A DNA stretch of 64,000 nucleotides from a virus: IMG/VR virus record IMGVR_UViG_3300017754_001832, one strand, 5' to 3'. How positions within the stretch are numbered: position 1 is the first letter of the stretch; each line of letters begins with the position of its first letter. A program made the translations under genes and the position numbers. Positions 1 to 57,367 of this stretch are shown one piece after another. A model generated the notes under the pieces. That model worked only from the letters and a program-made list of their open reading frames with translations. It did not search any database and was not told the DNA's origin.

Positions 1-183
1 ACCCCCGGCACGCCACGCCTGAAGACGGGGCCCAGGGCGACCGGGCTGCCGGGCCGCCGGCCGCCCCCACGTCTGCACCCCTGCCCCACAACTCAGACGC
101 ACATAGCTTGTTAGTTGAGTGATACCCTGCACCCCACCCACCCCCACCCCCTGCACCCCCACCCCCTGCACCCACCCCACCCA

Positions 184-232
184 CCCCCTGTAGGGGATAG
201 CCTGCACCCACCCCCTGTAGGGGATAGCCTGC
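184..232 (+). repeat. Tandem direct repeat, 2 x 22 bp CCCCCTGTAGGGGATAGCCTGC with a 27-bp period
   Basis: Identical copies at 184-205 and 211-232. Each contains the short inverted repeat CCCCT-GT-AGGGG. Confidence 0.85.
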
Positions 233-252
233 CCCACCCTGCCCCCCATCAA

Positions 253-269
253 CCCCCCCCCCCCCCCCC
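253..269 (+). repeat. Homopolymer C17 tract
   Basis: 17 consecutive C counted across 253-269. Confidence 0.9.
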
Positions 270-952
270 ACCCCCTGCACCCCCACCCCCTGCACCCCGA
301 TCCGGACGGCGCCGCCCCTCCCGTTGATCTCCGCCAAGGGCCTGCCCCATGGCGCCGCGTTCGCGCCATTCTGGCGACGTTCGCAATTGCCTGGCTTTTG
401 TTAACTGCCCCTTCATGGGGCTATGCCTGCACCCACCCACTGCACCCACCCCACCCATGGCGGGCCTGCACCCTGACTGCAGTCAGCACGTCACCCCATG
501 GGGGCACGCTCTACAGGGGGCAGGGTGCAGGGGCAGGCCGCCGCTCTGGCGTGGCGTGGATCAACCCCGCCCCATGGCATGGCCCTTGCTCCCTTCTCCC
601 TGTCTGCACCCACTGCCTGACTCGTGGTTCCCCACCACACTAGAGATAGGCAGGGACAAGCAGTCACCCCCGCAAGGCCCGCCCCTCACTAGGGCGGGCC
701 TTGTTCGTTGTGGCCTGCCCCTGCCCCACGTGGCCCGCTCTGGCGCGGCCTGCCCCTGCACCCCCGCCACGGGGCAGGCCCGATGCACGCTTGCCCTAAC
801 GCCGCGTTTCGCCGGGCTCGCCACTTTACCCGGCGGGCCTGGCTTTTCGTTAAGTGTAGAAAAGTGGCCGCAACTCAAAAGTTTCTTGTCTTGTTTACTT
901 GATCTTAAGGGGGGCTCGCGTAGTCTCTTCTTATCAGCAACGGAGTCGCCCG

Positions 953-1114
953 ATGAAAACCGCCCCCACCTTCGGAAAGAAAAAAGCCCCCGCCCCCGTC
1001 GCCACGGCTCGCCAGATTGCCGAGTCCGTCGCCCGTGAGTGGGTCGGGCACAAGGGCCCGCTTGATGCGGCCACGCTGCGCACCGTTGCGCGTCTGGCGT
1101 CGGAGTCGCTCTAA
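953..1114 (+). CDS. Hypothetical protein (53 aa)
   Basis: ATG 953 follows GGAG at 943-946. It is the tail of ORF 899..1114 and the first gene of the + strand block. Confidence 0.5.
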   Translation: MKTAPTFGKKKAPAPVATARQIAESVAREWVGHKGPLDAATLRTVARLASESL

Positions 1115-1248
1115 TGCTCACGCGCCGCGAAGTCTTCGTTATGCACCTTCAAATAGCTCTGGAAATGTCGCCGGTTATCGTGCTGGCGATTGTCCCGATG
1201 ATCCTAATGGCGTCGGGCCTCTGCTACCTCATGAACGCGGGAGTCTGA
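1114..1248 (+). CDS. Small membrane protein (44 aa), not in the ORF track
   Basis: Hand translation gives MLTRREVFVMHLQIALEMSPVIVLAIVPMILMASGLCYLMNAGV. TAATG overlap with the upstream gene. Ends in the junction GGGAGTCTGATATG. Confidence 0.45.
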   Translation: MLTRREVFVMHLQIALEMSPVIVLAIVPMILMASGLCYLMNAGV

Positions 1249-1249
1249 T

Positions 1250-1378
1250 ATGGCGCCGCGTACCGTCATCGGGACTCTTTGGCTTCTCGCGTTGCTCGCC
1301 ATCGGCGGAGTCGTTCTCGCCATCGGTTACGGCTTCGTGGGTCTTTTCAATCTCTGCAACAAACAAACGGGAGTCTGA
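1250..1378 (+). CDS. Small membrane protein (42 aa), not in the ORF track
   Basis: Hand translation gives MAPRTVIGTLWLLALLAIGGVVLAIGYGFVGLFNLCNKQTGV. It has the same GGGAGTCTGATATG junction at both ends. Confidence 0.45.
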   Translation: MAPRTVIGTLWLLALLAIGGVVLAIGYGFVGLFNLCNKQTGV

Positions 1379-1379
1379 T

Positions 1380-1562
1380 ATGCGCTGGAATGATTGCTTC
1401 GAGTCGGATGAAGTCACCACGGCCAAACGCAAGGCCCGCGAAGAGGTGGCGGCCATATTCGCCGACCTTGAGTCCGACATGCTCGAAACGTTGAACGAGA
1501 TTCGCGGCGCCCTTGGAAAGCATGCGCTGCAATCGCTCGCCGACATCCGCGACGCGGCCTAG
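1380..1562 (+). CDS. Hypothetical protein (60 aa)
   Basis: ATG 1380 follows GGGAG. It is the tail of ORF 1017..1562 (MRWNDCFESDEV...). Confidence 0.55.
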   Translation: MRWNDCFESDEVTTAKRKAREEVAAIFADLESDMLETLNEIRGALGKHALQSLADIRDAA

Positions 1563-1565
1563 CCC

Positions 1566-1907
1566 ATGTCATCCGTTACCTTGTGGAGCAAAAACGGAGT
1601 CGCCGCTCGCTGGAATAAGGGCGCCGCTCACACTGTAGAAACGGCCACTAGCTCCCGCGCATATCCGAACGAAGAGGCCGCGATAAGAGCGGCCAAACGC
1701 AAGGCGGCCAAGGCCGCGAAACAGGAAAGGACTCCGCCCATGTTCAAGCTCGAATATCGCGACCTCAACGCGGCCAACGTCAACTGGCGTTCATGGTCTA
1801 GCATGACATGGGACTCGCGTGAGGCCGCCGAACGTTTCAAGAAACAGGCGGAGATTGCATCGGCGCGCGACTCCCTTGCTCACGTCTACCGAGTCGTGCC
1901 CGCTTAA
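1566..1907 (+). CDS. Hypothetical protein (113 aa)
   Basis: ORF track. Protein-like composition. Tightly packed after the upstream gene. Confidence 0.6.
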   Translation: MSSVTLWSKNGVAARWNKGAAHTVETATSSRAYPNEEAAIRAAKRKAAKAAKQERTPPMFKLEYRDLNAANVNWRSWSSMTWDSREAAERFKKQAEIASARDSLAHVYRVVPA

Positions 1908-1952
1908 TCGCCCCCACATCGCCCCACATTCGCAAGTCAAAGGATTCCCAAC

Positions 1953-3200
1953 ATGTCTAACCGCCCTTTCCCGCTCATGCTCGAAGCCTTCCCCGCGTTC
2001 GATCAATCCACGCTCCCGCCTATCCCGTTGCAGTGGGTTGACATGTCATGGCGCGGCGCCCGCTTCTCTGACTCGTGCCCGCAATTCGGCGCCACGCCAG
2101 AGGCCCTAGCGGGAACGGGAGTCGTGGTTGTCATCAATTGGGAAGACCGTTGCGGATGCGGACAAGACTATGTCGCAGTGCTGTATGATTGCGCTGGCGA
2201 GTGCGTCGAAGAGTGGGGCGGGGATGATTGGACCGAATGCCTTCACGCGGTCTCACGGCTTCGCAGGAAATGGGCGCCACTGCTTGCCGCGAACATTCGC
2301 GAAGCGGAGGAGGCCGAACGCAAGGCCGCCGCGCAACGTGAGGCAATCGCCAGAGCGGAGAAGGCCGCCGCAACGCCGCGCGCTCTTGTGGAGTTTCCCG
2401 ACTATCCCGCCGACTCGCTCCCGCCCCTGCCTACTGACACGCTCTGGCATGACGAGTCGTGGCATAATGACATGTGCCCCTGCTATCACTCCGCCGACGG
2501 ATTCGGCGTGTGGATTGACTGGCCCGAGTCGAAGGATCGGGAGTTGATCGGCTCTAAGCGTTTCTGTGTTTTCGACTATGAAGAAAACGCGCGCGGCATG
2601 AGCAAGGCCCGCGACTCGTTTGAGTGTGACACATGGGAGGAGGTTCTAGCCTTCATCAACGCCGCGCGCGAAAGTCTCGGCGCCGACATCGCCAAGGGAT
2701 TCGGCGATGACATACAAGAGGCCGCCGCGTGGATTGCAGCGATGCACAAGGCGGGCAAGGCGTTCCATTGGGAAGACTCGCCCTATGACATAATCGAAAC
2801 AGTGAGCGGAAAACGCACGTTCACGGATGCGGAGTCTATCATCGTGAACGCATGCCGACTCCGTCTCTATGACTTCACGTGGCCCGCCGACTCGTGCCCG
2901 TGTGGCGTGTCGCTGGCGCTCATGTCAAAGGAAACGATAGACGGCATGTGCGCCGAATATACGAAGCTACTCGAACGCTTCGAGTTGCCTAGCATGTCGG
3001 CGGACGAATTATATTTTGAGATCGGCGCCGTTATTGAGGGACTCGAGTCTGCCTTCATCACGCCAGAGCGCGCGGCCAAGGGCGGACTAGAAGAGGCGAT
3101 GAAGCACGTCCGCAGTTTTTCCGTTGATTGGGAAGACCGAGTCGACTCGTTTCAAACCGTGAAAGACGCATTCCCCGCGCTTCGTTCGCTGATCTACTGA
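1953..3200 (+). CDS. Hypothetical protein (415 aa), rich in Trp, Cys and Asp/Glu-Ser
   Basis: ORF track. RBS AAGGATTC lies upstream of the ATG. Many in-frame GAS-TCN codon pairs. Confidence 0.75.
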   Translation: MSNRPFPLMLEAFPAFDQSTLPPIPLQWVDMSWRGARFSDSCPQFGATPEALAGTGVVVVINWEDRCGCGQDYVAVLYDCAGECVEEWGGDDWTECLHAVSRLRRKWAPLLAANIREAEEAERKAAAQREAIARAEKAAATPRALVEFPDYPADSLPPLPTDTLWHDESWHNDMCPCYHSADGFGVWIDWPESKDRELIGSKRFCVFDYEENARGMSKARDSFECDTWEEVLAFINAARESLGADIAKGFGDDIQEAAAWIAAMHKAGKAFHWEDSPYDIIETVSGKRTFTDAESIIVNACRLRLYDFTWPADSCPCGVSLALMSKETIDGMCAEYTKLLERFELPSMSADELYFEIGAVIEGLESAFITPERAAKGGLEEAMKHVRSFSVDWEDRVDSFQTVKDAFPALRSLIY

Positions 3201-3238
3201 GACCCTAGACTGCAGTCATCAACACAAGGAATCCGAAC

Positions 3239-3700
3239 ATGACTCACACTCCCGCCGCGCCAGAGATTGTCGCCGCGCGTCGACTCGTTCGCGACGCATG
3301 CCACGAACTAGGCGCCCTTCCGAATCACGTCTCGCACTGGAATCCGATCCGACTCGCCATGGCCGCCGACAACGTGCGAGCGGGCCTCACAACGCTAGGC
3401 CACAAGCTGGCGCCGAACGAAGAGGCCGCCTATTGGCGCCAGTGCGCAGAGCATGCGGAGGAACGCGCGGCGCTTCTCTCCCTCTTCACGGCTCGCCTAT
3501 TGGCGGAGACTCATGATTGGGCGTGGAGCCTTTGCGGCGAACGTGAAGGACTCGACTCGTTGCGCGCGGATTGCCTCACGGCTCTACAGGCTCACGCCGA
3601 ATCAGGCGGCGCCACAACGGGCGATTTTCTGGCGTTGCTGGAGTCGCTCAAGTCTGAGTCCCTGCCCCACTTGAAACAGGCGGCCAATGCGAGCCGCTAA
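3239..3700 (+). CDS. Hypothetical protein (153 aa)
   Basis: ORF track. RBS AAGGAATC upstream. Confidence 0.7.
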   Translation: MTHTPAAPEIVAARRLVRDACHELGALPNHVSHWNPIRLAMAADNVRAGLTTLGHKLAPNEEAAYWRQCAEHAEERAALLSLFTARLLAETHDWAWSLCGEREGLDSLRADCLTALQAHAESGGATTGDFLALLESLKSESLPHLKQAANASR

Positions 3701-3788
3701 ACTGATAATCCCCGCCGCTCTGTTTCTCGTTTGCGTCGCAGTGCAATGCACTGCGGCGCCTTCCCTGTTTCAATAGAAGGAGTCGCAC

Positions 3789-4019
3789 GTGAAGAATCGT
3801 TACGCTTATACGTTCGATGACGCGGGCCTAAACACAATCGGCGCCGCGTTGCATGTCTACATGACGCGGCCACACTTCGCGGAATTTCCAGACGAAGCCA
3901 AGCAACGCGCGCGGCGGATATACGCCAACGTCTCAGACGTTCGGCGGCCTTCGTTCCTTATCCCTCAACCCGACTCATGCGGATTCAATCTCGCATCCGT
4001 CGCCAGCTTCTCAGAATAG
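3789..4019 (+). CDS. Hypothetical protein (76 aa), GTG start
   Basis: ORF track. Preceded by AGGAGTCGCACGTG, the same string as the next gene. Confidence 0.6.
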   Translation: MKNRYAYTFDDAGLNTIGAALHVYMTRPHFAEFPDEAKQRARRIYANVSDVRRPSFLIPQPDSCGFNLASVASFSE

Positions 4020-4028
4020 GAGTCGCAC

Positions 4029-4424
4029 GTGCTTTCAATTGTTGCCCCTAAGAAGGTCCGAGTCTCGAAGGAAGGAGTCGCCGCATTCAATGCGCAGTGG
4101 CCCTGTAGCGAGTTGGACTCAGGCCGCGCTTATTGGTTCGAGTTTGACTCGGATGCAAACCTAATCGACTCAGACGTGCCCGAACATTCCGACGGCGCCG
4201 CCGCGCTCGCCATGTCGCAGGATTGCGAGCGTTGGCTATTCAACGAAGAGTGGCCCGATTGGGCGCCGGAAGACGCGCCGACTCCGATTGCTGAAACTGC
4301 GGCGGAGGAAGGTGCAAGGCATGCGCTCGAAGCTCTGGCCTATCTCGACTCCGACATCACGCCAGAGCAACGCGCGGCGCTCGCATCGCTCAAACAATGG
4401 GCCGAGTCGATCATCCGCGAATAG
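4029..4424 (+). CDS. Hypothetical acidic protein (131 aa), GTG start
   Basis: ORF track. Preceded by AGGAGTCGCACGTG. Asp/Glu-rich. Confidence 0.65.
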   Translation: MLSIVAPKKVRVSKEGVAAFNAQWPCSELDSGRAYWFEFDSDANLIDSDVPEHSDGAAALAMSQDCERWLFNEEWPDWAPEDAPTPIAETAAEEGARHALEALAYLDSDITPEQRAALASLKQWAESIIRE

Positions 4425-4429
4425 TCGAA

Positions 4430-4463
4430 ACGTCAAAACCTGGAAATTGCGAAAGAAGGAATC
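4430..4463 (+). promoter_or_regulatory. Conserved intergenic element, copy 1 (ACGTCAAAACCTGGAAATTGCGAAAGAAGGAATC)
   Basis: Near-identical to 5102-5135 and related to 6026-6061. Ends in an RBS-like AAGGAATC 5 nt before the ATG. Confidence 0.6.
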
Positions 4464-4468
4464 AACGC

Positions 4469-5101
4469 ATGACTCGTTATATCAAACTCTCCGCCGAAAC
4501 ATACGCGCGACTCAACTATGCACTAGCAGACGCCAGCGACGCGCGCCGCTCTGAGATCAACGCGACGCGAGACTCTGAGATCATCACAAGCAACGAGTCG
4601 GCGATTGCCGCTAACAACGTGGCCGCCGATCAACTGACTCAAGCGTGGAACGCGGGCAATCGACTCCCGACTCAATGCGCCACGCTCGAAGCGGAAAAAG
4701 AAACGCGCGAACGCATGCCCGGCGAACGCACGAATCGCGACCGCTCTAACCGCGCGGCGGATGCACTGCGCAAATACAACGGGAGCGACTCACGTGAAGA
4801 CGGAGTCGAAGGCGACTCGGAAATGCTCGCCGACATGCTAGGCGATTTGCGCCATTGGGCGCGGCTTCGCGGCGTTGACTTCGACGCATGCGCGGCGCGC
4901 GGCTTCGCAATGTCAGAGATGGAAAGAGTCGAAGACTTCGACGAAGAAGAAGAAGAAGACGAAGAGAATCCGCAACGCCGCGCGCTTCGCGAGATGATCC
5001 GACTCGCGTCTTCTCTTCGCGCCGCGAAGAACGAACGCGACCGCAAGCAATGGCGCGAATCGCTTTTCGCTTTCACTGAGACCGCGCGCGACACGCTCTA
5101 A
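4469..5101 (+). CDS. Hypothetical protein (210 aa) with an acidic EEEEEDEE tract
   Basis: Internal ATG of ORF 4397..5101, chosen because it follows AAGGAATC (MTRYIKLS...). Confidence 0.65.
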   Translation: MTRYIKLSAETYARLNYALADASDARRSEINATRDSEIITSNESAIAANNVAADQLTQAWNAGNRLPTQCATLEAEKETRERMPGERTNRDRSNRAADALRKYNGSDSREDGVEGDSEMLADMLGDLRHWARLRGVDFDACAARGFAMSEMERVEDFDEEEEEDEENPQRRALREMIRLASSLRAAKNERDRKQWRESLFAFTETARDTL

Positions 5102-5135
5102 ACGCCAAAACCTGGAAATTGCGAAAGAAGGAATC
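5102..5135 (+). promoter_or_regulatory. Conserved intergenic element, copy 2
   Basis: ACGCCAAAACCTGGAAATTGCGAAAGAAGGAATC, one mismatch to copy 1. Confidence 0.6.
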
Positions 5136-5140
5136 GAGCA

Positions 5141-6016
5141 ATGAAACTGCACCCCGAAGAACGCAAGGCCCGCGATGAAGTGGCCGTGTATGGATTGCGC
5201 CAGCGACTCAAACGCCACAAAGAAAAGACGGAAGGCGCAATTGAAAAGCGCCGCGCCGCGCTCGCGCCCTATGTGAAGGACTCCGCATTGTTGGAGTCGC
5301 GCGTCGCCGATCCGTCGGACTCGTATCTCGCCAGCTTGTGGCCGCTAGACTGGCGCGAATCCGCGCGGCTCGAAGCGCGGCGCCGGTTTGCGTTCGGCGA
5401 GTCCACGCCGACTCCAATGCCCGCCGACGGGCAACGCTTCGTTGAGAATATCGACTCGGCGTTCCGTAGCTGGCGCTATGTTCGCGACATCACACGCGGC
5501 CACTATATGCGCAGCGTCGATTCCGATTGGTATTGCGACTCGGACGGCCATAGGGTGGGGCGGGCAATCGTGGCCCGTCTCTCACATGGCCGATTCATCG
5601 GCGGAGTCAAATTTGAAGAACGCTCTTACAAGGACTCGGGCGCCTTGTTTGACTTTCGCGACATCACAAGCGGAGAAGAGACAGAGGCCGCAATCTCCGC
5701 CGCGCGCTTGTGCGAGCGTGTCGCCGAAAAAGAGCGCGACTATAACGAAGCGTGGCAAGCTGGCGCGGAATGCGTCGCGCTTCGCGAAGAGGTGGAGTCG
5801 ACGCGCGGCGAATTGCTGGAGTCGTTGGCTGAAATGCGCGCGGCTCGCAAGGCTCTGAAACAATCCGGAGTCGAGCAACTGCCTAGCGTCTGCAACGCCA
5901 TGCGCTCGCACGTTCGCGCGGGCCTTCGTGGAATTGCCCGCGCCAGAAAACGAGTCGAGGAACTACGGGAACGCTTCGAGCGTGAACCGGGATTCGCCGA
6001 CTCGTTCAATAGCTAG
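5141..6016 (+). CDS. Hypothetical protein (291 aa)
   Basis: ORF track. Follows element copy 2. Confidence 0.7.
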   Translation: MKLHPEERKARDEVAVYGLRQRLKRHKEKTEGAIEKRRAALAPYVKDSALLESRVADPSDSYLASLWPLDWRESARLEARRRFAFGESTPTPMPADGQRFVENIDSAFRSWRYVRDITRGHYMRSVDSDWYCDSDGHRVGRAIVARLSHGRFIGGVKFEERSYKDSGALFDFRDITSGEETEAAISAARLCERVAEKERDYNEAWQAGAECVALREEVESTRGELLESLAEMRAARKALKQSGVEQLPSVCNAMRSHVRAGLRGIARARKRVEELRERFEREPGFADSFNS

Positions 6017-6025
6017 AACTACACA

Positions 6026-6061
6026 ACGTCAAAAACCTGGAAACGAAGAGAAGAGAGAATC
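6026..6061 (+). promoter_or_regulatory. Conserved intergenic element, copy 3 (degenerate)
   Basis: ACGTCAAAAACCTGGAAACGAAGAGAAGAGAGAATC. The core CAAAAACCTGG also recurs at 7881-7891. Confidence 0.45.
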
Positions 6062-6064
6062 ACA

Positions 6065-7657
6065 ATGGGTTACGGTAACGGGACTCGCACTAGCCATTTT
6101 GCGTCATCGGCGAATCGCTATCGCGACGGCGCCAAGGTCGCGCAATCTTTCCACAACGCGCAATGCGGCCACGTCTGGCGCCAAGGCGTTCAAGACTTCG
6201 GACGATCAAGCAACGGGAATCTATTCTTTCACCACGCGCGACTCTATTCCTATGGGCGTCACTTCGTCGTCGCTATCCTGACTCCGGATGGCCGCGCGCT
6301 TGTGAACGCCGACTCGTCAAGCGTCACCACGTCAGGCCATCAAACCGACGCGCGACGCGCGCTAGGGTGGGGCGGTTACGCCAGCGTGCCCGACCTTACC
6401 GCGCTAGTCGAAAAGACTCCTTTTGGCCTATGGTGCGACTATCACACGCGCGCGGCCGGCGGCGACAAGATCGACTCGGGCAATCTGGAGTCGCTCAAAC
6501 GCGGCGCCCGCGTGGCCGTGGTGGAATATGTCACGCGCGAAGCGTACCGACTCGAAGACGAAGGAGTCGGCGTTGCGTTGCTGGCGCTTGTCGGAGTCGA
6601 AGACGCGCCGACTCGTTTCGCTCGCATGCTCGCCACGTCGAAGAAGAAACAGGAGTCGATAAAGGCAGACGCAGAGAAGAAGCGCCGCGACTATTACCTA
6701 GGCGTTGCGTCTCGCGTCGCGAACATGAGCGAGACAGAGCGCGCGGAATATCTGGCGAGTCGACTCCCGCGTTCCGTTGTGACCTCAGAGCATGAGATAG
6801 CGAAAGAACGAGTCAAGCTCCACCGGGCGCGCGGTTACGCCAAGGCCGCGAAGCGGACAAAGCAGGCCGCCGCAGTCTCGGCAATGATTCGCGACATCGA
6901 CTCCGCGCTCAAGAAAAAGCGCGCGGGCCTTGATCGCTGGCAAGCCCGGCGCGGACTCGCAAACGCAATTGGCGCATATCGTGAAGGCTTGGCCCGCATT
7001 GCGCGCGGCGGAGTCTATCCGGATGGCCCATGGGACTCCGCATGGCGCGCGGAGTCGTTCGTCGAAGCCGTGGCCTATGTCGCGCGCAACGTCAAAACGC
7101 TGCGGCCTGAGAATCGCGAGACCCTGGAAAACGCGGCGCGACTCCTCACGCAAGGACTCGCCGCGTGGAAAGAACGGGAACGCGAAGAGGCAGACGAACG
7201 CGAACGAGTCCGCGTGGCGGAACGTTTCGCCAAGCAGGCAGACGCTCGCCGGGCTTGGCTTGCTGGCGAGCGTGTGGAGTCCTACTTGCTCCACGGACTC
7301 ACGGATGAAACAGGCGGCGCCCTGCTTCGAGCAATCGGAGTCGAGCGTGACGAGTCGGGCGCCATTATCGCGGGAACGCTCGAAACGTCACAACGTGCGA
7401 GCGTGCCCCTGCCTCACGCTATCCGCGCTTTCCGCTTCCTGAAACGCTGCAAGGAGTCCGGTCGCGCGTGGCATAAGAACGGCCACGCAATCCGAGTCGG
7501 GCATTTCCAGATTGACTCCATTGAGCCGTCCGGAAATTTCCGCGCGGGATGCCACCGCATCAATTGGGCGGAGGTGGAGCGTCTGGCGCTGGCGCTTGGC
7601 GTGTTTGACGTGGCGAGCGATGACGGCGCCCTAGAGCCGTCGCACGTTGCGGCCTGA
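6065..7657 (+). CDS. Hypothetical protein (530 aa)
   Basis: ORF track. Protein-like composition. I did not recognise a family. Confidence 0.75.
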   Translation: MGYGNGTRTSHFASSANRYRDGAKVAQSFHNAQCGHVWRQGVQDFGRSSNGNLFFHHARLYSYGRHFVVAILTPDGRALVNADSSSVTTSGHQTDARRALGWGGYASVPDLTALVEKTPFGLWCDYHTRAAGGDKIDSGNLESLKRGARVAVVEYVTREAYRLEDEGVGVALLALVGVEDAPTRFARMLATSKKKQESIKADAEKKRRDYYLGVASRVANMSETERAEYLASRLPRSVVTSEHEIAKERVKLHRARGYAKAAKRTKQAAAVSAMIRDIDSALKKKRAGLDRWQARRGLANAIGAYREGLARIARGGVYPDGPWDSAWRAESFVEAVAYVARNVKTLRPENRETLENAARLLTQGLAAWKEREREEADERERVRVAERFAKQADARRAWLAGERVESYLLHGLTDETGGALLRAIGVERDESGAIIAGTLETSQRASVPLPHAIRAFRFLKRCKESGRAWHKNGHAIRVGHFQIDSIEPSGNFRAGCHRINWAEVERLALALGVFDVASDDGALEPSHVAA

Positions 7658-7667
7658 TAGGGGCAGG

Positions 7668-7823
7668 GTGCGAGTCTTGTGGCCGCTCTATGTGGCCGCC
7701 TTGCTCGCATCCCTCACGCTTGCCGCGTTGGCGCTGGCGTTGTGGGGCTGTCTCAAGTGGTGGCGTGAATTGATCGGCGCCGCGATTCTCTATTGGCTGA
7801 TATTGGGGCGGAGTAGACACTAG
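7668..7823 (+). CDS. Possible small membrane protein (51 aa), GTG start
   Basis: Hand translation gives VRVLWPLYVAALLASLTLAALALALWGCLKWWRELIGAAILYWLILGRSRH. Lies just before the terminator. Confidence 0.35.
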   Translation: MRVLWPLYVAALLASLTLAALALALWGCLKWWRELIGAAILYWLILGRSRH

Positions 7824-7840
7824 CCCCCGAAACGAACGAA

Positions 7841-7871
7841 GGCCCGCCGGATCATCCGGCGGGCCTTTTTC
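7841..7871. terminator. Rho-independent terminator between convergent genes
   Basis: Perfect 11-bp stem GGCCCGCCGGA/TCCGGCGGGCC, 3-nt loop, then TTTTT on the + strand. Confidence 0.8.
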
Positions 7872-7930
7872 ATTGCACCCCAAAAACCTGGCCCGCGTCT
7901 GCCCGGCGAAAAGAACGCGCGCGGCGGGCC

Positions 7931-8326
7931 TCAGACGGGGGCAGGATAGGCTTTCCAGCTTAGTTGCCAGTGCGGGCCATCCTGAAACGTGCGCCAATCT
8001 CCGCCCCACTCAATCGCGACTCCTTCGAGCCGCGCGGCTTCCTTCATCCCCTCCGCAATTTTCCGGATCACGGGCCAGCTATAATCAGGGGCGCCCGCAA
8101 TCCATCCGCAAACGTCTATTGCGTGGCCCGTGAGATGGCGGGAGCGGAGAGTCTTGCTTGCTCCCGCCGCGACTAGCTGGCGCTGGCGTGCGAGCGTCCT
8201 AAGCCCCTCTGTAACCCTGACATCTACGGCGCCCGTTTGCGCCAGATACCGAGTCAGGACTCGGACTAGGTCGGGATGCACCCCCGCCAGCTTTTCACGG
8301 GATGACTTGCCTAATTTGAACGCCAT
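7931..8326 (-). CDS. Peptidase M15 family endolysin (L-Ala-D-Glu or D-Ala-D-Ala peptidase type), 131 aa
   Basis: Internal ATG of ORF 7931..8650 (MAFKLGKSS...). Motifs SRHLTGHAIDV and GGDWRTFQDGPHWQL fit the M15 metal-binding pattern. Confidence 0.85.
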   Translation of the reverse strand: MAFKLGKSSREKLAGVHPDLVRVLTRYLAQTGAVDVRVTEGLRTLARQRQLVAAGASKTLRSRHLTGHAIDVCGWIAGAPDYSWPVIRKIAEGMKEAARLEGVAIEWGGDWRTFQDGPHWQLSWKAYPAPV

Positions 8327-8483
8327 GGCGTGGACTCCGGATACGGGCGCCGCCGGGTAAGGTGACGCTAGGTTATGCTCCGGACGAGCATATGGGGCGC
8401 CCGGCGCGTGCGCGCCTGGGTGCGCGCGTGCGCGTACACTACGGGAATGACTCGTGTAGTGCAACGCCAGGCCGGCCGGGCTC

Positions 8484-8574
8484 GGGAATTTTGGGACTTT
8501 GGATTCATTCTGGGAATTTTGGGGCGCCAGCGTCAATTTTTTACAGTTCCGAATCGAGCCGGGGAATTTTGGGG
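8484..8574 (+). repeat. Three direct copies of GGGAATTTTGGG(G/A), operator-like
   Basis: Copies at 8484-8496, 8512-8524 and 8562-8574, in the divergent region between the endolysin and the middle operon. Confidence 0.7.
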
Positions 8575-8614
8575 CTTTCGAGTCAAGTTTTGAAAATATC
8601 AAGTCAGCCCCCGC

Positions 8615-9359: not shown

Positions 9360-10148
9360 TTGGGTTATCTGTTTGACCGAGCGATCCGGATCAGCCACGA
9401 CACGGGCAAGCAGTGCCCGGTCGCCGAGGGACGTGCCGTCTACGTGATGGAGAACGCCGCTCGGGAAGCCGCCGCCCACATCTTCGCCGGCATGGCGTCC
9501 GAACAGTTGATCCGCTTCCTGTTCCTCCCGTTCCCCGAACTCTGCATGGAGTGGCGCCACGAGGACGAGCAGGTCTGCGTGCTGATCGAAGAGTCGAAGG
9601 CCACCAACTCGAAGACGGGCGAGGAGTTCGACTCGGTCACGGTCGCGATCCTCGTCGAGAACGAGGCAGGCCGTCAGTGGCAGGCGTCGATGTATTACGT
9701 CCGCGCGGTGAACAGCAACGGCAACATCCCGTGGGATGAATCGCCCGCAGCGAAAGCGATCCCCGAGAACAAGCGGATGTCGAGCGACGCGCACAAGAAC
9801 CTGATGGCAGAGATCATCGTCCAGGTCGCGCTCCTCAACGCGCCAAACCTCCGCACCGCCGAGGCGCGCGACATGAGCAAGCTCAACAAGGCTCGCGCGA
9901 AGAAGGGACAGCCCTTGCTGTGCGGCCACACCGTGATCCGCCCGGCCGCAGAGACCCGTGAGTGGCTGCGCGCAAACGCCGACGTGGACCGCAAGCCCGC
10001 CATGCAGCATTGGGTCAAAGGCCACCTCCACACCTACTGGACAGGCCCCAAGACCGAACAGCAGAAGCCCGTCATCAAGCTCCTGGCTCCGCACAAGCGC
10101 GGCAACCCGGAGCGGGGTGAGAAACCCCAAAGGTACATCGTCACATGA
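9360..10148 (+). CDS. Hypothetical protein (262 aa), TTG start
   Basis: ORF track. GAGGGG lies upstream. Composition is protein-like, unlike the antisense ORF 9318..10130. Confidence 0.65.
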   Translation: MGYLFDRAIRISHDTGKQCPVAEGRAVYVMENAAREAAAHIFAGMASEQLIRFLFLPFPELCMEWRHEDEQVCVLIEESKATNSKTGEEFDSVTVAILVENEAGRQWQASMYYVRAVNSNGNIPWDESPAAKAIPENKRMSSDAHKNLMAEIIVQVALLNAPNLRTAEARDMSKLNKARAKKGQPLLCGHTVIRPAAETREWLRANADVDRKPAMQHWVKGHLHTYWTGPKTEQQKPVIKLLAPHKRGNPERGEKPQRYIVT

Positions 10149-10828
10149 ACTCTTTTCAGAAACGTGCGGCAGCCGACAAGCGCAAGCCGCCCATCACAAC
10201 CAAGATGACGGCGGAGGAGTATCTGCGCCGTCAGAACGCCCGCCCTCCGTTGGAGCCGGTGTGCGAGGGGTTCCTGTTGACCGGCGTGGGATACTGCACG
10301 CTCCGCGAAGTCTGGGAGGGTCGGGGACTCAACAAGAAAGGTGCGTCTCTAACTGACAGAACAAAGGCCGTCCAAGCCTTGATCGCGAAGCACCCCGAGA
10401 TCACGCTAGCCTTGCTCACGATAGGAGCCCAAGTCGCCGTGGGCGAGATCAGGGCTACTGAATCGCAGAACAAGATGCGGGCCGCGATGAACCAGCCGGA
10501 ACGGGCCAAGCACCTGCACAATAAACGATCCGCGACTGTTAAACGGCGGCAGGCGGAGGACTCGGTCGCCCTCACGAAGATCGCAGCGTTCGACCGGATC
10601 GTTGAGATGCTTGACCACCAGAAGGTCGGCGACAAGATGCTCGGAGACTGCCGCAAGTCTGATCTTCTTCGCGAGGCCGTTCGTCTCGACACAATTTCAG
10701 ACGAGGCGAAACTGCGAGCATCCTTCTACCGCCAACTCGCCAAAATGATCGGAGACAAGACAGTTCGCGGCGCACAGGACCGTGGCGGCATCGTTGCCCT
10801 CCTGACCCACACCTTTCAGGACGCTTGA
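10145..10828 (+). CDS. Hypothetical protein (227 aa)
   Basis: ORF track. ATGA overlap with the upstream gene. Confidence 0.7.
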   Translation: MNSFQKRAAADKRKPPITTKMTAEEYLRRQNARPPLEPVCEGFLLTGVGYCTLREVWEGRGLNKKGASLTDRTKAVQALIAKHPEITLALLTIGAQVAVGEIRATESQNKMRAAMNQPERAKHLHNKRSATVKRRQAEDSVALTKIAAFDRIVEMLDHQKVGDKMLGDCRKSDLLREAVRLDTISDEAKLRASFYRQLAKMIGDKTVRGAQDRGGIVALLTHTFQDA

Positions 10829-11265: not shown

Positions 11266-11474
11266 TGAGCTACGCCGCACAAGTCAGAACCATGACCGCG
11301 TCCGAGCGGTTCGAGCTAGTCAACGCACTGCTCGCGATCTCGATCCAGCGCCACGGCCCGTTGGTGATCTCCCGAGCGGATGTCGCTCTCGAACTCATGG
11401 GGGCCGCGCACAAGACGGTCTACATCAAAGACCTGCCCAACGGCGACTTCGAGGTGATGGTTCACAAGCAATGA
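11265..11474 (+). CDS. Hypothetical protein (69 aa)
   Basis: ATG overlaps the upstream TGA (MSYAAQVRTM...). Confidence 0.5.
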   Translation: MSYAAQVRTMTASERFELVNALLAISIQRHGPLVISRADVALELMGAAHKTVYIKDLPNGDFEVMVHKQ

Positions 11475-12088
11475 CCCGGCGCGAGCAGATCGAAGCGAAG
11501 ATCGCGGCCCGATCCCACTACGAGGATCGCGGATACGAGACGCCATGCCGTATCTGGGATGGCCCCAAGAGCGGCGACCCCGAGAAGACGCGGGGCCACG
11601 GCTACGGGCGCATGAACCTCGACGGCGCAACTGTTGCAGTTCACATCGCCGCGTGGGTCAACGTGAACGGCCTGATCCCGCCGCGAAAACAACTCGACCA
11701 TTTGTGCCATCAACGGGACTGCTGCGAGGAGCGACACTTGAAGCTGAAGACGCACAAGCAGAATCAGCGCAACAAGAAACCGAAGCTCTCCCTCGTCGAG
11801 GTTGACCTGGCCCACATCGAACAGCGCGTGGTCGCGGCGATGATGGATGCGAAGCCCCTGCACCGGATGCCCGGCCAGCACGAGCCGGTCGAATACGGCC
11901 ACACGATCACAGGCCGTATGCGCCGGGCCAACCCGAACCCGTGGGGTGGCTACAACGAGAACGTGCCGGCGCCTGACGGCTTCGACCCGACGAACCCGAG
12001 TGACTCCTCCTACAAGGACCAGGTCATCGGTCACGACATACCCGCAGACCGGCTTCCGCCGGCCGCGCCTATGGTGGAAGACGAATGA
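11471..12088 (+). CDS. HNH homing endonuclease (205 aa)
   Basis: ATGA overlap with the upstream gene. Motif LDHLCHQRDCCEERHL is typical of HNH_3-type nucleases. Confidence 0.8.
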   Translation: MTRREQIEAKIAARSHYEDRGYETPCRIWDGPKSGDPEKTRGHGYGRMNLDGATVAVHIAAWVNVNGLIPPRKQLDHLCHQRDCCEERHLKLKTHKQNQRNKKPKLSLVEVDLAHIEQRVVAAMMDAKPLHRMPGQHEPVEYGHTITGRMRRANPNPWGGYNENVPAPDGFDPTNPSDSSYKDQVIGHDIPADRLPPAAPMVEDE

Positions 12089-21297: not shown

Positions 21298-21597
21298 ATG
21301 GCCTCGGGCCAATTCGTTTTGAACGGAACTGAGAAGCAAGCGGAGGTGTTCGATGTCATCCTCGGCGAGCGCGACTACCAAGACCAGCAGCAGGGCAACG
21401 CCAAACGTCACGAAGGGCAACCGCCGATGACGCCCGGTGAATACCTCCTGTGCATGGAGAAGTGCCTACAGGACGCCCGCACCGAATGGTACAAGCCCGA
21501 TGGCGGCAAGTCCTGCCTCGACTTCGTTCGCAAGGTCACGGCTCTTGGCGTAGGCTGCATGGAGCTTCACGGCGCTCCTCGTCGGGAGGGCTTCTGA
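21298..21597 (+). CDS. Hypothetical protein (99 aa), possibly all-alpha NTP-pyrophosphohydrolase-like
   Basis: ILGERDYQDQQQG ... TPGEYLLCMEKCL is weakly reminiscent of MazG-superfamily phage proteins. Confidence 0.5.
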   Translation: MASGQFVLNGTEKQAEVFDVILGERDYQDQQQGNAKRHEGQPPMTPGEYLLCMEKCLQDARTEWYKPDGGKSCLDFVRKVTALGVGCMELHGAPRREGF

Positions 21598-21878
21598 TGT
21601 CGGCCACCAAACCGAACGCAGGCAATCGAGGCATCAACGGCGATGCCAAAGAGAAGGTGAAGCGGTTCGTCTCCCGCATCCGCAAGCTCAAGGCCGAGCA
21701 GGCGGAGATCGGCGAAGAGGTGAAGAACATCTACGCCGAGTGCAAGTCCAACGGATACGACGCAGCGGCCATCCGCGAGTTGATCTCGGAGATGGAGAAG
21801 CGCGAGAAGAACCCTGAAAAGTGGGAAGCGAAAGAGGACATGAAAGATGTCCTCCGCGTCGCGCTGGGAATGGTCTGA
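21597..21878 (+). CDS. gapR: GapR-like DNA-binding protein (DUF2312), 93 aa
   Basis: KVKRFVSRIRKLKAEQAEIGEEVKNIYAECKSNGYDAAAIRELI aligns with the GapR core as I recall it (...RVERLEVEKAEIMEQIKEVYAEAKGNGFD...). Confidence 0.75.
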   Translation: MSATKPNAGNRGINGDAKEKVKRFVSRIRKLKAEQAEIGEEVKNIYAECKSNGYDAAAIRELISEMEKREKNPEKWEAKEDMKDVLRVALGMV

Positions 21879-23343: not shown

Positions 23344-23626
23344 GAAGAAGAAGCCCACGCTCAACGAGACCGAGCGCCTGGCTCGCGAGGACGCCGCGCT
23401 CGCCGTCATCAAGGCCAACCGCAAGCCTCTGCCGTTCGGCGAAGAGGTGATGCAGGGCTTCGAGGGCATGAGCCGCCATCGCATCAGCCAGTTCATGGCG
23501 CGTGAACGGATGCGCGCCGAGGCCGAGGAGAAGCGGGGCCGCACCGACCGCGCCAACGATGCCCGCTGGAATATGGCTCGCGCCAAGCAGGCGCTCAAGT
23601 TCATCGACGCACAGGCCGCAGCATGA
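23336..23626 (+). CDS. Hypothetical basic protein (96 aa)
   Basis: ORF track. Confidence 0.55.
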   Translation: MRKKKKPTLNETERLAREDAALAVIKANRKPLPFGEEVMQGFEGMSRHRISQFMARERMRAEAEEKRGRTDRANDARWNMARAKQALKFIDAQAAA

Positions 23627-24291
23627 AGATCGCAGCACTCCCGCCGGGTCCGTTCGGCCTTATCTACGCCGACCCGCCATGGCGCGTCGAGACCTACAGC
23701 GAGAAGGGCCGCAACCGGCTGCCCGACGGCGATGTGGGCCACTACCAGACGATGACGCTCGACGACATGAAGTCGATGCCGGTCGCCGATGTCGCGGCGA
23801 AGGACTGCATGCTGGTGATGTGGGTGATCGACACGCACATTCCGCAGGCGCTCGAACTCGGCGCGGCGTGGGGCTTCACCTACAAGACCACGGCGTTCTA
23901 TTGGGCCAAGCTCCGCAAGCTCGGCGCCGACGGGAAACCCGGCCGCGAAGCGAAGACTCCCGAGAAGGAGTTCCCCGCCGGCATGGGATACTGGACCCGG
24001 GCGAACCCGGAGCAGGCGTTCCTGTTCACCCGAGGCAAGCCGCAGCGGATCGACAAGGGCGTGCCCAAGCTGATCCCCTTCGACGACTACCCACAGGTGG
24101 TCGCGGCCAACCGGCGCGAGCACAGCCGCAAGCCCGACGAGGTCTACGACCGCGTCAACCGGCTGATCGGCGACGTGCCCAAGCTCGAACTGTTCGCCCG
24201 CACCTCCGCACCCGGCTGGACCGCATGGGGCAACGAGGTCGGGAAGTTCGATACGAAACCCCGCAGATCGAGGACCGATTTGCTGGGATAA
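23623..24291 (+). CDS. MT-A70 family N6-adenine DNA methyltransferase (222 aa)
   Basis: Catalytic IYADPPWR (DPPW) near the N-terminus. Conserved ...EHSRKPDEVY... near the C-terminus. Confidence 0.85.
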   Translation: MKIAALPPGPFGLIYADPPWRVETYSEKGRNRLPDGDVGHYQTMTLDDMKSMPVADVAAKDCMLVMWVIDTHIPQALELGAAWGFTYKTTAFYWAKLRKLGADGKPGREAKTPEKEFPAGMGYWTRANPEQAFLFTRGKPQRIDKGVPKLIPFDDYPQVVAANRREHSRKPDEVYDRVNRLIGDVPKLELFARTSAPGWTAWGNEVGKFDTKPRRSRTDLLG

Positions 24292-55658: not shown

Positions 55659-56265
55659 GTTCTTGTCCCTCTGGGAGATATGGGTAGGCTTTGAGCGCGG
55701 AGTCGGGATTGAGGTTGTAGACAGCAACCCCACGTTTTTTGAGATCGGCAGGCTGGCGCGCGAGGCCCCACTGCTGGCGTTTGTAGCGATCATTCCAATC
55801 CTCAGTCAGCGTGCCCGTGAAGTGGCGTTCCTTGTTCGGGCCGGGCTTCACGTCCACGCCCACCAGAAGGATGCGGCGCGATCCACGGAGCACCGCGTAG
55901 TTGATGGCGAGCGCGGTCGTCGTGAATGTTCCGCGTAGTTCGGCCGGGTTCTTCGAGAGCCCGCCGCCGGCCACCTTCGGGATGAACCGGATGCGGTCGT
56001 CGTGAAGCTCGGGCGGCAGGGGCTTCGGGTCCGTGTAGAGGATCAGCGGCCCCTTGTAGCCAGACAGGTCTGGCGTGCGGCGCGCGTACCGATGATCGCC
56101 GATCATCAGCACCTCGGCGTGAGGCACCTTCAGGTAGCCGTCCTTGACCGCTATCGTCTTCAGGCCCGCGATGCGCTCGAAGTTGAACGAGTTCACCGAC
56201 GGGCCCGAGGCGACGATAGCGACCGTGCAGCCAGCCCAATCACGAGGGACGACGTGAGACTTCAT
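55645..56265 (-). CDS. DUF115 / Maf-like putative glycosyltransferase (206 aa)
   Basis: IVASGPSV glycine loop, TIAVKDG, SRRILLVGVDV. Parallels the 26834..27562 product. Confidence 0.5.
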   Translation of the reverse strand: MKSHVVPRDWAGCTVAIVASGPSVNSFNFERIAGLKTIAVKDGYLKVPHAEVLMIGDHRYARRTPDLSGYKGPLILYTDPKPLPPELHDDRIRFIPKVAGGGLSKNPAELRGTFTTTALAINYAVLRGSRRILLVGVDVKPGPNKERHFTGTLTEDWNDRYKRQQWGLARQPADLKKRGVAVYNLNPDSALKAYPYLPEGQEHDIA

Positions 56266-56831
56266 TCGTCAGTCGAACCGATGCCATCATTCTTGAACGG
56301 GCGCACGAGCACCGCGAGTTCAACGCCGATGCGCTTGGGCTTGATCGGATCAACCTCGACCACCTCGGCGAAGTGCTTCTTCAGGCGCTCCATCCACCAC
56401 TTCGTCGGCTTGACGATGAGGTGCGCGTTGCGACCGTCGGCGAGGGTCTTGTTCGCCAGGCGTTGCGAGATCACCAGCAGGCCGCGCACCTTAACGAGCG
56501 AGGCGATGTGCTCCAGCACGTTGTCGAGCATGTCCGGTTCTACGTGCTCCAGAACGTCGTTGCAGGTGACGAAGTCTGCCGGCTTCGGCATCTGCGGCGC
56601 GGTGACGGGGTCATAGCCCTGTGTCGCCACCATAGGCGCGCGGGCCGCGATCTCAGCGAGCAGGTTGCCCTTGCCGCAGCCGTAGTCGAGATACGAGAGG
56701 GCGCCGGCACCCGTCATGTAGTCGAGCACGCGGTCGGCCCACGCATCGCCCTTGCCGCCGTACTTCGCCTTGCGGCCATGAAGCTCAGCGTTGAGCGCGC
56801 GATACTGTTCGGAGATGAGTGGCTTGGTCAT
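56262..56831 (-). CDS. Class I SAM-dependent methyltransferase (189 aa)
   Basis: Motif I LDYGCGKG. Has DVLEHVEPDML. ATGA overlaps at both ends. Confidence 0.75.
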   Translation of the reverse strand: MTKPLISEQYRALNAELHGRKAKYGGKGDAWADRVLDYMTGAGALSYLDYGCGKGNLLAEIAARAPMVATQGYDPVTAPQMPKPADFVTCNDVLEHVEPDMLDNVLEHIASLVKVRGLLVISQRLANKTLADGRNAHLIVKPTKWWMERLKKHFAEVVEVDPIKPKRIGVELAVLVRPFKNDGIGSTDE

Positions 56832-57367
56832 TTGATCCTCGTGATGAGCACAGCAAGTTCGGATGCGGCTTTCGTCTCGTCGAGGATAGGAACCTCTTCG
56901 ATTCTGTAGGGGCCTGCGAAAGCGACGGCGATGGTCTGGAGCCACCACTCGCGCGGCTTCACCAGCGGGTGCGTGTCGCGCTTCTTCGGCGAGCGGTTGC
57001 GCAGCGAGATCGTGATGAGGGCGCCGTTGCGAGCGCAGCGGCGGATGTCGGTGAGGACCGCGTCATACATGCCGACCTCTACGTGCTCCATCACGTCGAT
57101 GCAGGTCACGAAGTCGGCGGGCATCGGCGTGATGTCGCCGAACGCAGGCTCATACGACGTGCCGGTGAAGTGCAGGCCGTCGGGGTGTTCGAGAACGTGG
57201 TACGCGAGGGCGCTTCGACCAGCGCCGTAGTCGAGGATCGACTCCGAGGCCGTCTGGTGCATGTAGGCCACGACACGGTCGGCCCATCGGTGCCCGATGA
57301 TGCCGAAGTTCGGGTCGCGGTCGTGCAGCGCCTTCAGACGCTTGCGGTGCTCGACGGTGATGGTCAT
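56828..57367 (-). CDS. Class I SAM-dependent methyltransferase, paralogue (179 aa)
   Basis: LDYGAGRS and DVMEHVEVGMY. Same architecture as the neighbouring gene. Confidence 0.7.
   Translation of the reverse strand: MTITVEHRKRLKALHDRDPNFGIIGHRWADRVVAYMHQTASESILDYGAGRSALAYHVLEHPDGLHFTGTSYEPAFGDITPMPADFVTCIDVMEHVEVGMYDAVLTDIRRCARNGALITISLRNRSPKKRDTHPLVKPREWWLQTIAVAFAGPYRIEEVPILDETKAASELAVLITRIK

Follow-up and report, generated by a model that had tools for sequence, protein, structure and literature searches.

A GA(G/C)TC word island confined to one operon in a Casjensviridae-like phage and its relatives

One rightward operon of a metagenomic phage was found to be densely packed with the DNA word GASTC, i.e. 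GA(G/C)TC (GAGTC or GACTC), which forms the G/C-centred half of GANTC; the A/T-centred half, GA(A/T)TC (GAATC or GATTC), is called GAWTC here. The phage is represented by IMG/VR virus record IMGVR_UViG_3300017754_001832, and the stretch analysed (the window) is 64 kb of its 68.5-kb contig. The original prediction, made by hand from the letters alone, had placed about 130 GANTC sites in positions 901-7800 (about one per 53 bp), of which about 100 were GAGTC or GACTC, against an expectation of roughly one site per 300 bp. Exact counting gave 130 GANTC starting in this block, one per 53.1 bp, and these comprised 57 GACTC, 48 GAGTC, 15 GAATC, and 10 GATTC, so that 105 sites had a G/C centre. The remaining 57.1 kb of the window contained 194 GANTC, one per 294 bp, which is the expectation from base composition, and the control stretch 10141-10800 held three, the number also counted by hand.

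When the block was subjected to dinucleotide-preserving shuffling (n = 1000), GANTC occurred 37.8 ± 5.6 times, and the highest value was 59. GASTC, present 105 times, was expected 16.3 ± 3.9 times (observed/expected 6.5; Poisson P of ca. 1e-48 for at least 105 sites), while GAWTC, present 25 times, was expected 21.7 ± 4.5 times (observed/expected 1.2). The predicted GANTC excess is thus real, but the selected word is GA(G/C)TC only. The maximum-scoring GASTC segment was 943-8580 with 112 sites, which extends slightly beyond the right edge of the block first proposed. The excess was limited to this segment of the 64 kb and is not genome-wide as DNA uptake sequences are. Neither shuffled sequence nor the rest of the window approached the density of the block. 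When all 4-, 5-, and 6-mers were screened without bias against synonymous shuffles, GASTC came first in three independent islands (summed z of 36; the other islands are described below). The remaining top words were sub- or super-words of GASTC, and the best unrelated words had a summed z of ca. 13; the top 6-mer of the window block was CGACTC. A maximal-order Markov model gives no useful expectation in this case, since the sub-words of the pentamer owe most of their counts to it.

The GASTC sites in the core island were on average 65 bp apart with a largest gap of 293 bp, and the coefficient of variation of the gaps (0.79) was that of a distribution slightly more even than random; the pooled coefficient across islands was 1.04. 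A spectral test for helical phasing or regular spacing gave only a weak 3-nt codon signal. In four islands, the flanks of GASTC were at background frequencies beyond the ±1 positions, and the ±1 positions were 81-84% G/C as compared to 70% G+C at the third codon positions of the block. The flank composition looks like an effect of third-position G+C content (GC3) and coding, with no extended motif. Since no conservation was seen past ±1, a repeat family is not the source of the GASTC sites. It is their number and not their position that matters, and because they are single, unphased, and devoid of an extended consensus, the island is read here as a density-coded array.

The twelve island genes, which were called on an identical Logan contig (L011) and used for the codon tests, contain 101 of the 105 GASTC. 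Synonymous-codon shuffles that left the proteins unchanged gave 36.5 ± 4.3 sites, and codon-order shuffles gave 15.9 ± 3.9, so that the codon-shuffled control proposed at the outset did not reproduce the density. The outcome of both shuffles was the same for the islands of two phages introduced below, R16L and DSS3-P1. The proteins were affected as well: [DE]S dipeptides numbered 55 in the island proteins as compared to 22.0 ± 4.1 in amino-acid shuffles, in agreement with the ES and DS enrichment noticed earlier. Asp and Glu codons preceding Ser were GAC (28), GAG (20), GAA (4), and GAT (1), i.e. 48 GAS versus 5 GAW, while elsewhere in the block GAA was the commonest Glu codon (95 versus 62 GAG). 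Likewise, Ser following Asp or Glu was encoded by TCN in 52 of 53 cases, while AGY accounted for 29 of the 90 Ser codons elsewhere. The sites had been described as falling mainly in frame as Glu/Asp-Ser. This frame (frame 0) was indeed the commonest, with 50 sites versus 27 expected from synonymous shuffles, but it held only 50 of the 101 coding sites, and frame 1 (NGA-STC, with rare NGA codons; 37 versus 6.4) and frame 2 (14 versus 3.2) were enriched too. Since the synonymous, codon-order, and dipeptide tests were all exceeded, both codon choice and amino-acid order are bent to the word. Selection acts on the DNA word through these two routes, and, as had been suspected, it is strong enough to shape the proteins. 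GAGTC and GACTC occurred 44 and 57 times on the coding strand in the window, 25 and 21 times in R16L, and 19 and 22 times in DSS3-P1, and the plus strand of positions 901-7800 (48 GAGTC versus 57 GACTC) had no orientation bias of the Chi kind. Because the coding strand carries GAGTC and GACTC about equally often, GASTC is a word of duplex DNA.

The island recurred in nine other phage genomes or contigs. Against dinucleotide shuffles, the observed/expected ratios of GASTC were 6.5 in the island and 0.74 in the remainder of the locus for the window, 9.0 and 0.57 for Erythrobacter phage R16L, 7.1 and 0.52 for Ruegeria phage DSS3-P1, and 5.6 and 0.45 for phage S-ESS1. Five other loci gave 6.6 and 1.08 (L012), 7.7 and 0.38 (L013), 7.4 and 0.45 (L015), 13.0 and 0.60 (L017), and 6.3 and 0.55 (L018), and an island was also present in L019. 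In each relative, the excess was confined to one block. Sinorhizobium phage RHph_X2_30 had a weak island (observed/expected 2.8). GAWTC in the islands averaged ca. 1.3, with 2.5 in L017, 1.6 in R16L, and 1.5 in L013; the mild rise in L017 and R16L points to a small GANTC-wide component in some phages. The islands have almost no proteins in common. The family of the 530-residue protein encoded in the window island alone links the window, S-ESS1, and R16L, and DSS3-P1 shares none.

The orthologous island genes of L012, which have 68% nucleotide identity to those of the window, allowed individual sites to be followed. At aligned positions, 31 of 66 window sites (47%) were kept, while the background for identical 5-mers in this alignment was 26%. 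In the same comparison, 35 GASTC were lost and 27 were gained, so that losses were offset by gains and the density was maintained. The alignment indicates purifying selection on individual sites plus selection on density.

No island was found in the syntenic Betaproteobacteria phages AchV4 and AH2 (34 GASTC in 59 kb and 30 GASTC in 50 kb, respectively). The large terminase of AchV4 is as near to that of the window as are the terminases of alphaproteobacterial phages. At the synonymous level, GASTC was avoided in AchV4 (0.55), AH2 (0.52), and phage phiCbK (10-50 kb; 0.56) with z of -3 to -4.6, and GAWTC was at ca. 1 in these phages; it seems that either a GASTC-specific pressure or a bias at codon junctions operates in other hosts too. 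Outside the island, GASTC in the window had an observed/expected ratio of 1.34 against synonymous shuffles, which is not the depletion of restriction avoidance. Four loci carry the gene of the 530-residue protein and no island, namely L016, L020, L021, and the T7-like Rhizobium phage RHEph01. GANTC was strongly depleted across the stretches fetched of L016 and L021 (a single GANTC in L021 1-14000), and RHEph01 had 39 GANTC in 43 kb. These deficits suggest that the hosts of L021, RHEph01, and L016 practise GANTC-directed restriction. When the presence and absence of gene families was compared over eight genomes, no family tracked the island, and a GapR-like family tracked host class only.

Other words also set the block apart. 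GC3 was ca. 0.69 in the block versus 0.8-0.9 elsewhere in the window, and CTAG, with an observed/expected ratio of 0.26 in the rest (a four-fold depletion), was at 1.04 in 901-8400. The same CTAG contrast was seen in DSS3-P1, a weaker one in R16L, and one in observed/expected only in S-ESS1. CCGG and GATC were about 3-fold sparser in 901-8400 than in the rest. A second, weaker word, ATTGC/GCAAT, had a z of 4-5 against synonymous shuffles in the islands of the window, R16L, and DSS3-P1, and its density was 2- to 5-fold above that of the rest in the window, R16L (L003 1-6000), S-ESS1, and RHph_X2_30. CGCCAG/CTGGCG was also enriched in the window and R16L. Further tetramers were scarce in relatives: GTAC was missing altogether from R16L (50 kb) and had a single copy in S-ESS1 (60 kb), as compared to 76-98 expected, and the R16L island was nearly without GGCC (11 versus 65) and CATG (1 versus 5). 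The tetramer deficits of R16L and S-ESS1 are classic signatures of restriction avoidance.

The window phage is a Casjensviridae-like siphophage. It encodes a lambda-type large terminase, an E-type major capsid protein, a family A DNA polymerase, an SNF2 helicase, and an Enc34-type single-strand-binding protein, and the isolates closest to it in their large terminase (48-54% identity) belong to the Casjensviridae. These isolates infect Sinorhizobium, Achromobacter, Ruegeria, Loktanella, and Burkholderia, and S-ESS1, recorded from Synechococcus, is also among them. Near-identity searches of 50,697 phage records with the island and with 20 kb of the phage gave no match. The host is probably an alphaproteobacterium, as judged from the GapR-like gene of the window (a marker of such hosts), the hosts of the nearest isolates, and the distribution of the 530-residue family. 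The GapR-like family was present in all alphaproteobacterial phages examined among the relatives, including the Loktanella phage, and in S-ESS1, and it was not present in AchV4 or AH2. The alphaproteobacterial host guessed at first thus receives indirect support from the match to PF10073 and from the isolates on Sinorhizobium, Ruegeria, and Erythrobacter. S-ESS1 (KY249644.1; L001+L002) has Synechococcus as its recorded host, yet it carries a GapR-like gene, a GASTC island, and a member of the 530-residue family; it may in truth infect an alphaproteobacterium that was present in a non-axenic culture.

The window also encodes a predicted MT-A70-family N6-adenine DNA methyltransferase, a candidate for methylation of the sites. 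Its nearest relatives occur in S-ESS1 and in Stx, Vibrio, and Rhodobacter phages, those of the latter three being uncharacterised, and its specificity might be GANTC-like or non-specific. RHph_X2_30 has a gene annotated as a GcrA-like cell-cycle regulator (L004 7562-8206) ca. 1.5 kb downstream of its weak island (1-6000).

Nearly all Alphaproteobacteria methylate GANTC, which is the signature N6-adenine target of this class. Every GASTC site is also a GANTC site, i.e. a target of the methyltransferase CcrM, and among phages with known hosts the strong islands occurred in two alphaproteobacterial phages (on Ruegeria and Erythrobacter) and in S-ESS1. Because a word lying inside GANTC in phages of the very class that uses GANTC is unlikely by chance, a model based on methylation is preferred here. 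A property of the duplex DNA that acts in cis, is coded by GASTC density, and is kept up by selection on one operon can be taken as established. Beyond this, we tentatively hypothesise that the island is a cis-acting, density-coded array for a methylation-sensitive reader, tied to the GANTC biology of Alphaproteobacteria, and that it would operate as described below. The GASTC sites would be N6-methylated by the host CcrM and/or by a phage methyltransferase. The methylated sites would then collectively mark the operon for a reader sensitive to methylation state, which could be the complex of GcrA, sigma70, and RNA polymerase or another reader that also senses the central G:C pair. As a consequence, the operon would be expressed or handled in one way on fully methylated parental DNA and in another on newly replicated DNA, and phage DNA would likewise be set apart from host DNA. 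It is quite possible, if short of probable, that a kilobase-scale array couples the operon to the GANTC methylation and cell-cycle machinery, or to a new reader of the central G:C pair, and it would then be a new kind of cis element. To our knowledge, no GASTC-specific reader has been described.

Several observations favour the methylation-based array. The GANTC-avoiding phages L016, L021, and RHEph01 have no island despite their 530-residue gene, the betaproteobacterial phages AchV4 and AH2 have none, and no phage gene family tracks the island. Alphaproteobacterial phages often encode GANTC methyltransferases (PMC5537653). Moreover, natural CcrM homologues that methylate GAWTC and not GASTC exist (PMC8919816), and since such variants discriminate the two halves, the centre of GANTC can be read.

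A number of findings weigh on the other side. The discrimination at the central base is strong, with GAA or GAT in only 5 of 53 Asp/Glu-Ser pairs, while CcrM has only a minor central-base preference in vitro (PMC3287173). An array of CcrM targets is expected to use all four centres about equally, and this was not the case (6.5 for GASTC versus 1.2 for GAWTC). The context preferred by GcrA is YGAKTCK with G or T in the centre (PMC4647560); it was found, as YGAGTCK, in 162 of 565 pooled island sites (29%) versus 32% outside, and the commonest 7-mer context of island sites was GGAGTCG. The explanation through CcrM and GcrA in the form first suggested, with methylated GANTC read by GcrA, is therefore supported neither by the centre bias nor by the context. 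Over 90% of the sites are within genes, while GcrA is known at promoters, and a search for GcrA homologues in the window, S-ESS1, R16L, and DSS3-P1 found none. The methyltransferases of these four phages belong to different families. In addition, S-ESS1 is recorded as a Synechococcus phage, and an alphaproteobacterial host seems necessary among the isolates but not sufficient: RHEph01 has no island, phiCbK has merely a relative rise of GASTC, and Loktanella phage pCB2051-A (L023+L024) has only nine GASTC in its last 958 bp (56000-56958), a cluster that may be a miniature or vestigial island.

The strict G/C centre would follow directly if the sites were read by a GAGTC-specific protein unrelated to CcrM and GcrA, because an asymmetric 5-bp site read on either strand yields exactly GAGTC and GACTC. 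Such a protein, encoded by the phage (possibly by an island gene) or by the host, might bind, nick, or modify DNA, and it would coat, nick, modify, or organise the block, for example to protect or amplify the operon. The type IIS and nicking enzymes PleI, MlyI, and BstNBI recognise GAGTC, and an HNH_3 endonuclease gene lies nearby in the window. The trait is limited to one siphophage subgroup and is missing from other alphaproteobacterial phages, which also fits. Since AchV4, AH2, and phiCbK avoid GASTC (ca. 0.5) and not GAWTC (ca. 1), agents separating the two halves may act on the phages of other hosts. However, no gene family co-varied with the island over the eight genomes and no candidate gene was found: the HNH gene is not common to DSS3-P1 or R16L, and the 530-residue protein is uncoupled from the island in both directions. 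The location of the word inside GANTC in exactly the class that uses GANTC would also have to be a coincidence. We regard this explanation as the main rival, possible but somewhat less likely than the methylation-based array, and the remaining ones rank below it.

It is improbable that the island serves as a sponge or decoy that titrates CcrM, a HinfI- or PleI-type restriction enzyme, or a defence sensor, and thereby perturbs the cell cycle or saturates defence. Each phage genome brings 130 GANTC into the cell and a replicating pool far more, as compared to 4542 in total in the Caulobacter genome (PMC4647560), and GANTC is about two-fold under-represented in genomes that methylate it (PMC8919816). 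However, a sponge could just as well extend beyond one operon, CcrM makes no distinction at the central base, and restriction sites in DNA that must stay intact would be lethal. The usual signature of restriction is depletion, as seen in L016, L021, RHEph01, AchV4, and AH2.

A signal in messenger RNA (mRNA), with GAGUC and GACUC as sites of cleavage, pausing, or modification comparable to the GGAG sites of T4 RegB in early transcripts, is very unlikely. The island does match one transcription unit exactly, GGAGTC makes up 42 of the 105 sites, and two of these 42 overlap ribosome-binding sites (3780 and 4020). However, two RNA words would need about equal selection in three phages, an equality that a reader of duplex DNA predicts, and in DSS3-P1 the same-strand genes continue beyond the island, which takes up just their distal half. 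Least credible of all, to the point of being scarcely tenable, is that the island has no function and is a by-product of composition, codon usage, proteins, a dispersed repeat, or recent horizontal origin: the block is indeed distinct in its GC3 and its undepleted CTAG, but dinucleotide, synonymous, and codon-order shuffles all fail by 13-23 standard deviations, the flanks show no repeat copies, the same word is enriched in islands with unrelated proteins, and sites are conserved above background in L012.

Four further candidates were considered and rejected. Chi-like sites do not fit as there is no strand bias, the SASNY target of Mom-type modification is too degenerate a motif and no Mom-like gene turned up among the scanned proteins, METTL3-like RNA methylation at GGACU fits just one of the two words, and GTC sites of the T7-primase type were likewise set aside.

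The island coincides with one rightward operon, flanked on the left by a C-rich array and on the right by a terminator hairpin (Table 1). Several long inverted repeats are also present in positions 1-900. The leader of the operon has 83% identity to that of L012, as compared to 68% across the orthologous island genes. A simple sigma-70 consensus scan detected no promoter in the leader, so that its promoter function is putative; no GANTC is visible in its promoter-like segment. No family with known function matched the island proteins in Pfam and PHROG searches. The genes look like fast-evolving accessory genes with an early or host-takeover role. Just downstream of the island, a 262-residue protein (9360-10148, plus strand) had no Pfam match, and the 262-residue gene at the matching position in L012 (7983-8771) carries a precomputed annotation of PF26125 (AcrVA2-like), a hint that anti-defence genes adjoin the island.

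Table 1. Coordinates of the island, its genes, and other features of the window
Feature	Position	Strand	Remarks
C-rich repeat array	1-900		non-coding, strand-asymmetric; C 44%, G 25%; adjoins the island
CTGCACCC	within 1-900		12 copies in the C-rich array
Perfect 27-nt tandem pair	178-231		within the C-rich array
Poly-C run	about 250-270		within the C-rich array
Operon leader	795-935	+	terminator-like hairpin (ca. 810-845), then promoter-like segment (ca. 875-915)
Core GASTC island	943-7676		105 sites
Lower-density island tail	7677-8580		7 further GASTC; spans the terminator, the M15 peptidase gene, and the next spacer
Five small island genes	953-1114, 1114-1248, 1250-1378, 1380-1562, 1566-1907	+	called on L011; no known families; 1566-1907 without a Pfam or PHROG match
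Island gene, 415 residues	1953-3200	+	weak match to phrog_34896; 14 GASTC; L012 orthologue 61% identical
Three island genes	3239-3700, 3789-4019, 4029-4424	+	no assigned function
Island gene	4469-5101	+	matches phrog_3963
Island gene, 291 residues	5141-6016	+	phrog_8188
Island gene, 530 residues	6065-7657	+	phrog_7247
Hairpin, 13-bp G+C-rich stem	7839-7867		between the operon and the convergent peptidase gene; marks the operon end
M15-family peptidase gene (endolysin-like)	7931-8326	-	convergent with the operon, in the island tail
HNH_3 endonuclease gene	11471-12088	+	middle region; L012 has an HNH_3 gene (259 residues) at a similar position
GapR-like DNA-binding protein gene	21450-21878	+	PF10073, E = 6e-14; marker of an alphaproteobacterial host
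MT-A70-family N6-adenine DNA methyltransferase gene (predicted)	23623-24291	+	222 residues, DPPW motif

The 530-residue protein is the only island protein with detectable relatives in several other phages, and it belongs to no Pfam family. A beta domain at its N-terminus is followed by ca. 280 residues of helical structure and by an alpha/beta domain at the C-terminus. Homologues were found in S-ESS1, Erythrobacter phages, Brevundimonas phages, the terminal repeats of phiCbK-like phages, and RHEph01, where the homologue is gp004, upstream of the RNA polymerase gene. A scan of viral contigs found no relatives, and a scan of genome contigs found only three phage-sized contigs that had been binned into metagenome-assembled genomes; since these were phage-sized, no host was assigned from them. 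The four loci noted above have the protein and no island, and the island-bearing DSS3-P1 has no such protein. Because protein and island are uncoupled in both directions, the protein is not the cause of the island. Residues H36, W38, Y63, and T89 in the N-terminal part and T441, S442, P448, G495, and C496 in the C-terminal part are invariant in the family, and 90% or more of the sequences also share H451, H480, D484, and H497 in the C-terminal part. GHFxID...AGCHxINW, the pattern in that part, is a possible metal-binding motif.

Island and sequence end lie close together in many assemblies. The metagenomic contigs L011, L012, L013 (with L014, which has the same genes), L015, and L017 end within ca. 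0.3-1 kb of their own islands, and the ends of L019 and of the R16L, DSS3-P1, RHph_X2_30, and S-ESS1 records are likewise near their islands. In the window and eight relatives, the sequence on the end side is G+C-rich and usually C-rich on one strand, and most of them carry there a lineage-specific 8- to 9-mer repeated up to 12 times (6-12 in the relatives). At the position of this array, nine independent assemblies or records come to an end. The C-rich array may represent a physical genome end, an origin, a regulatory iteron or regulator-binding region, or an assembly breakpoint. Against a physical end, L016 runs through the junction, and the lambda-type terminase genes (51.6-54.3 kb) are ca. 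14 kb off around the circular map, so that the cohesive-end site would by analogy with lambda lie elsewhere. The homologues of the 530-residue protein in the region before the RNA polymerase gene of RHEph01 and in the phiCbK terminal repeat point toward an early role, and by this analogy it is plausible that the island block is early and first to enter the cell.

A 6- to 13-fold conserved excess in one operon, paid for in codon and peptide choice, is the reverse of the word avoidance of phages and implies a strong function that has not yet been described. Since GASTC lies within GANTC, a central cell-cycle mark of Alphaproteobacteria, the island may show how phages plug into this system. It may also reveal a reader that tells GASTC from GAWTC, a distinction known in natural CcrM variants; if this holds, such a centre-sensitive reader would be a second layer of the GANTC epigenetic code. 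The question is directly testable, because DSS3-P1 and R16L have recorded isolate hosts (Ruegeria and Erythrobacter, respectively). The island could further be utilised as a sequence signature for this phage group.

Full-text literature searches turned up no account of a phage with a GANTC or GAGTC island, and the phenomenon is best placed by comparison with the nearest known systems. One of these is the N6-adenine methylation of GANTC by CcrM and its reading by GcrA. Every enriched site is a GANTC, and phages of the class, such as RHph_X2_30 and phiCbK, often carry GANTC methyltransferases or GcrA homologues. CGACTC is reported to be critical in the ftsZ and mipZ promoters (PMC3708114), and CGACTC is also the top 6-mer of the island. 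In contrast to that system, only the G/C-centred half is enriched here and YGAKTCK is not favoured, about 100 sites lie within genes over 7 kb while the known sites are single and in promoters, and the phage block accumulates GANTC while host genomes deplete it.

The Dam GATC clusters of Escherichia coli oriC, bound by SeqA, and of phage P1 pac resemble the island in that a short palindromic methyltransferase target is locally dense and may act collectively. However, those clusters occupy 150-300 bp of non-coding control DNA and SeqA depends on spacing, while the island spans ca. 7 kb of coding DNA and is unphased; we know of no SeqA-like reader in Alphaproteobacteria. The early or leading modules of T7 (class I), T5 (first-step transfer), SPO1 and phiCbK (terminal repeats), and plasmids (leading regions) likewise consist of small, fast-evolving genes beside a probable genome end, and the 530-residue family provides a link to the RHEph01 and phiCbK regions mentioned above, but none of these modules has been reported with a dense array of a single pentamer. 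Avoidance of restriction sites involves short words of this kind, palindromic or type IIS, and GASTC or GANTC is depleted in AchV4, AH2, L021, and RHEph01; the sign is opposite in the island, with its 6.5-fold excess. Finally, Chi, the uptake sequences (uptake signal sequences and DNA uptake sequences), and KOPS (FtsK-orienting polar sequences) are also short words under selection strong enough to bias codons and peptides. Those words are genome-wide in bacteria, while GASTC is confined to one phage operon, and Chi and KOPS are skewed in orientation, while GASTC is symmetric (48 to 57). The phenomenon thus belongs with the over-represented functional DNA words, from which it differs in scale, location, symmetry, and sign.

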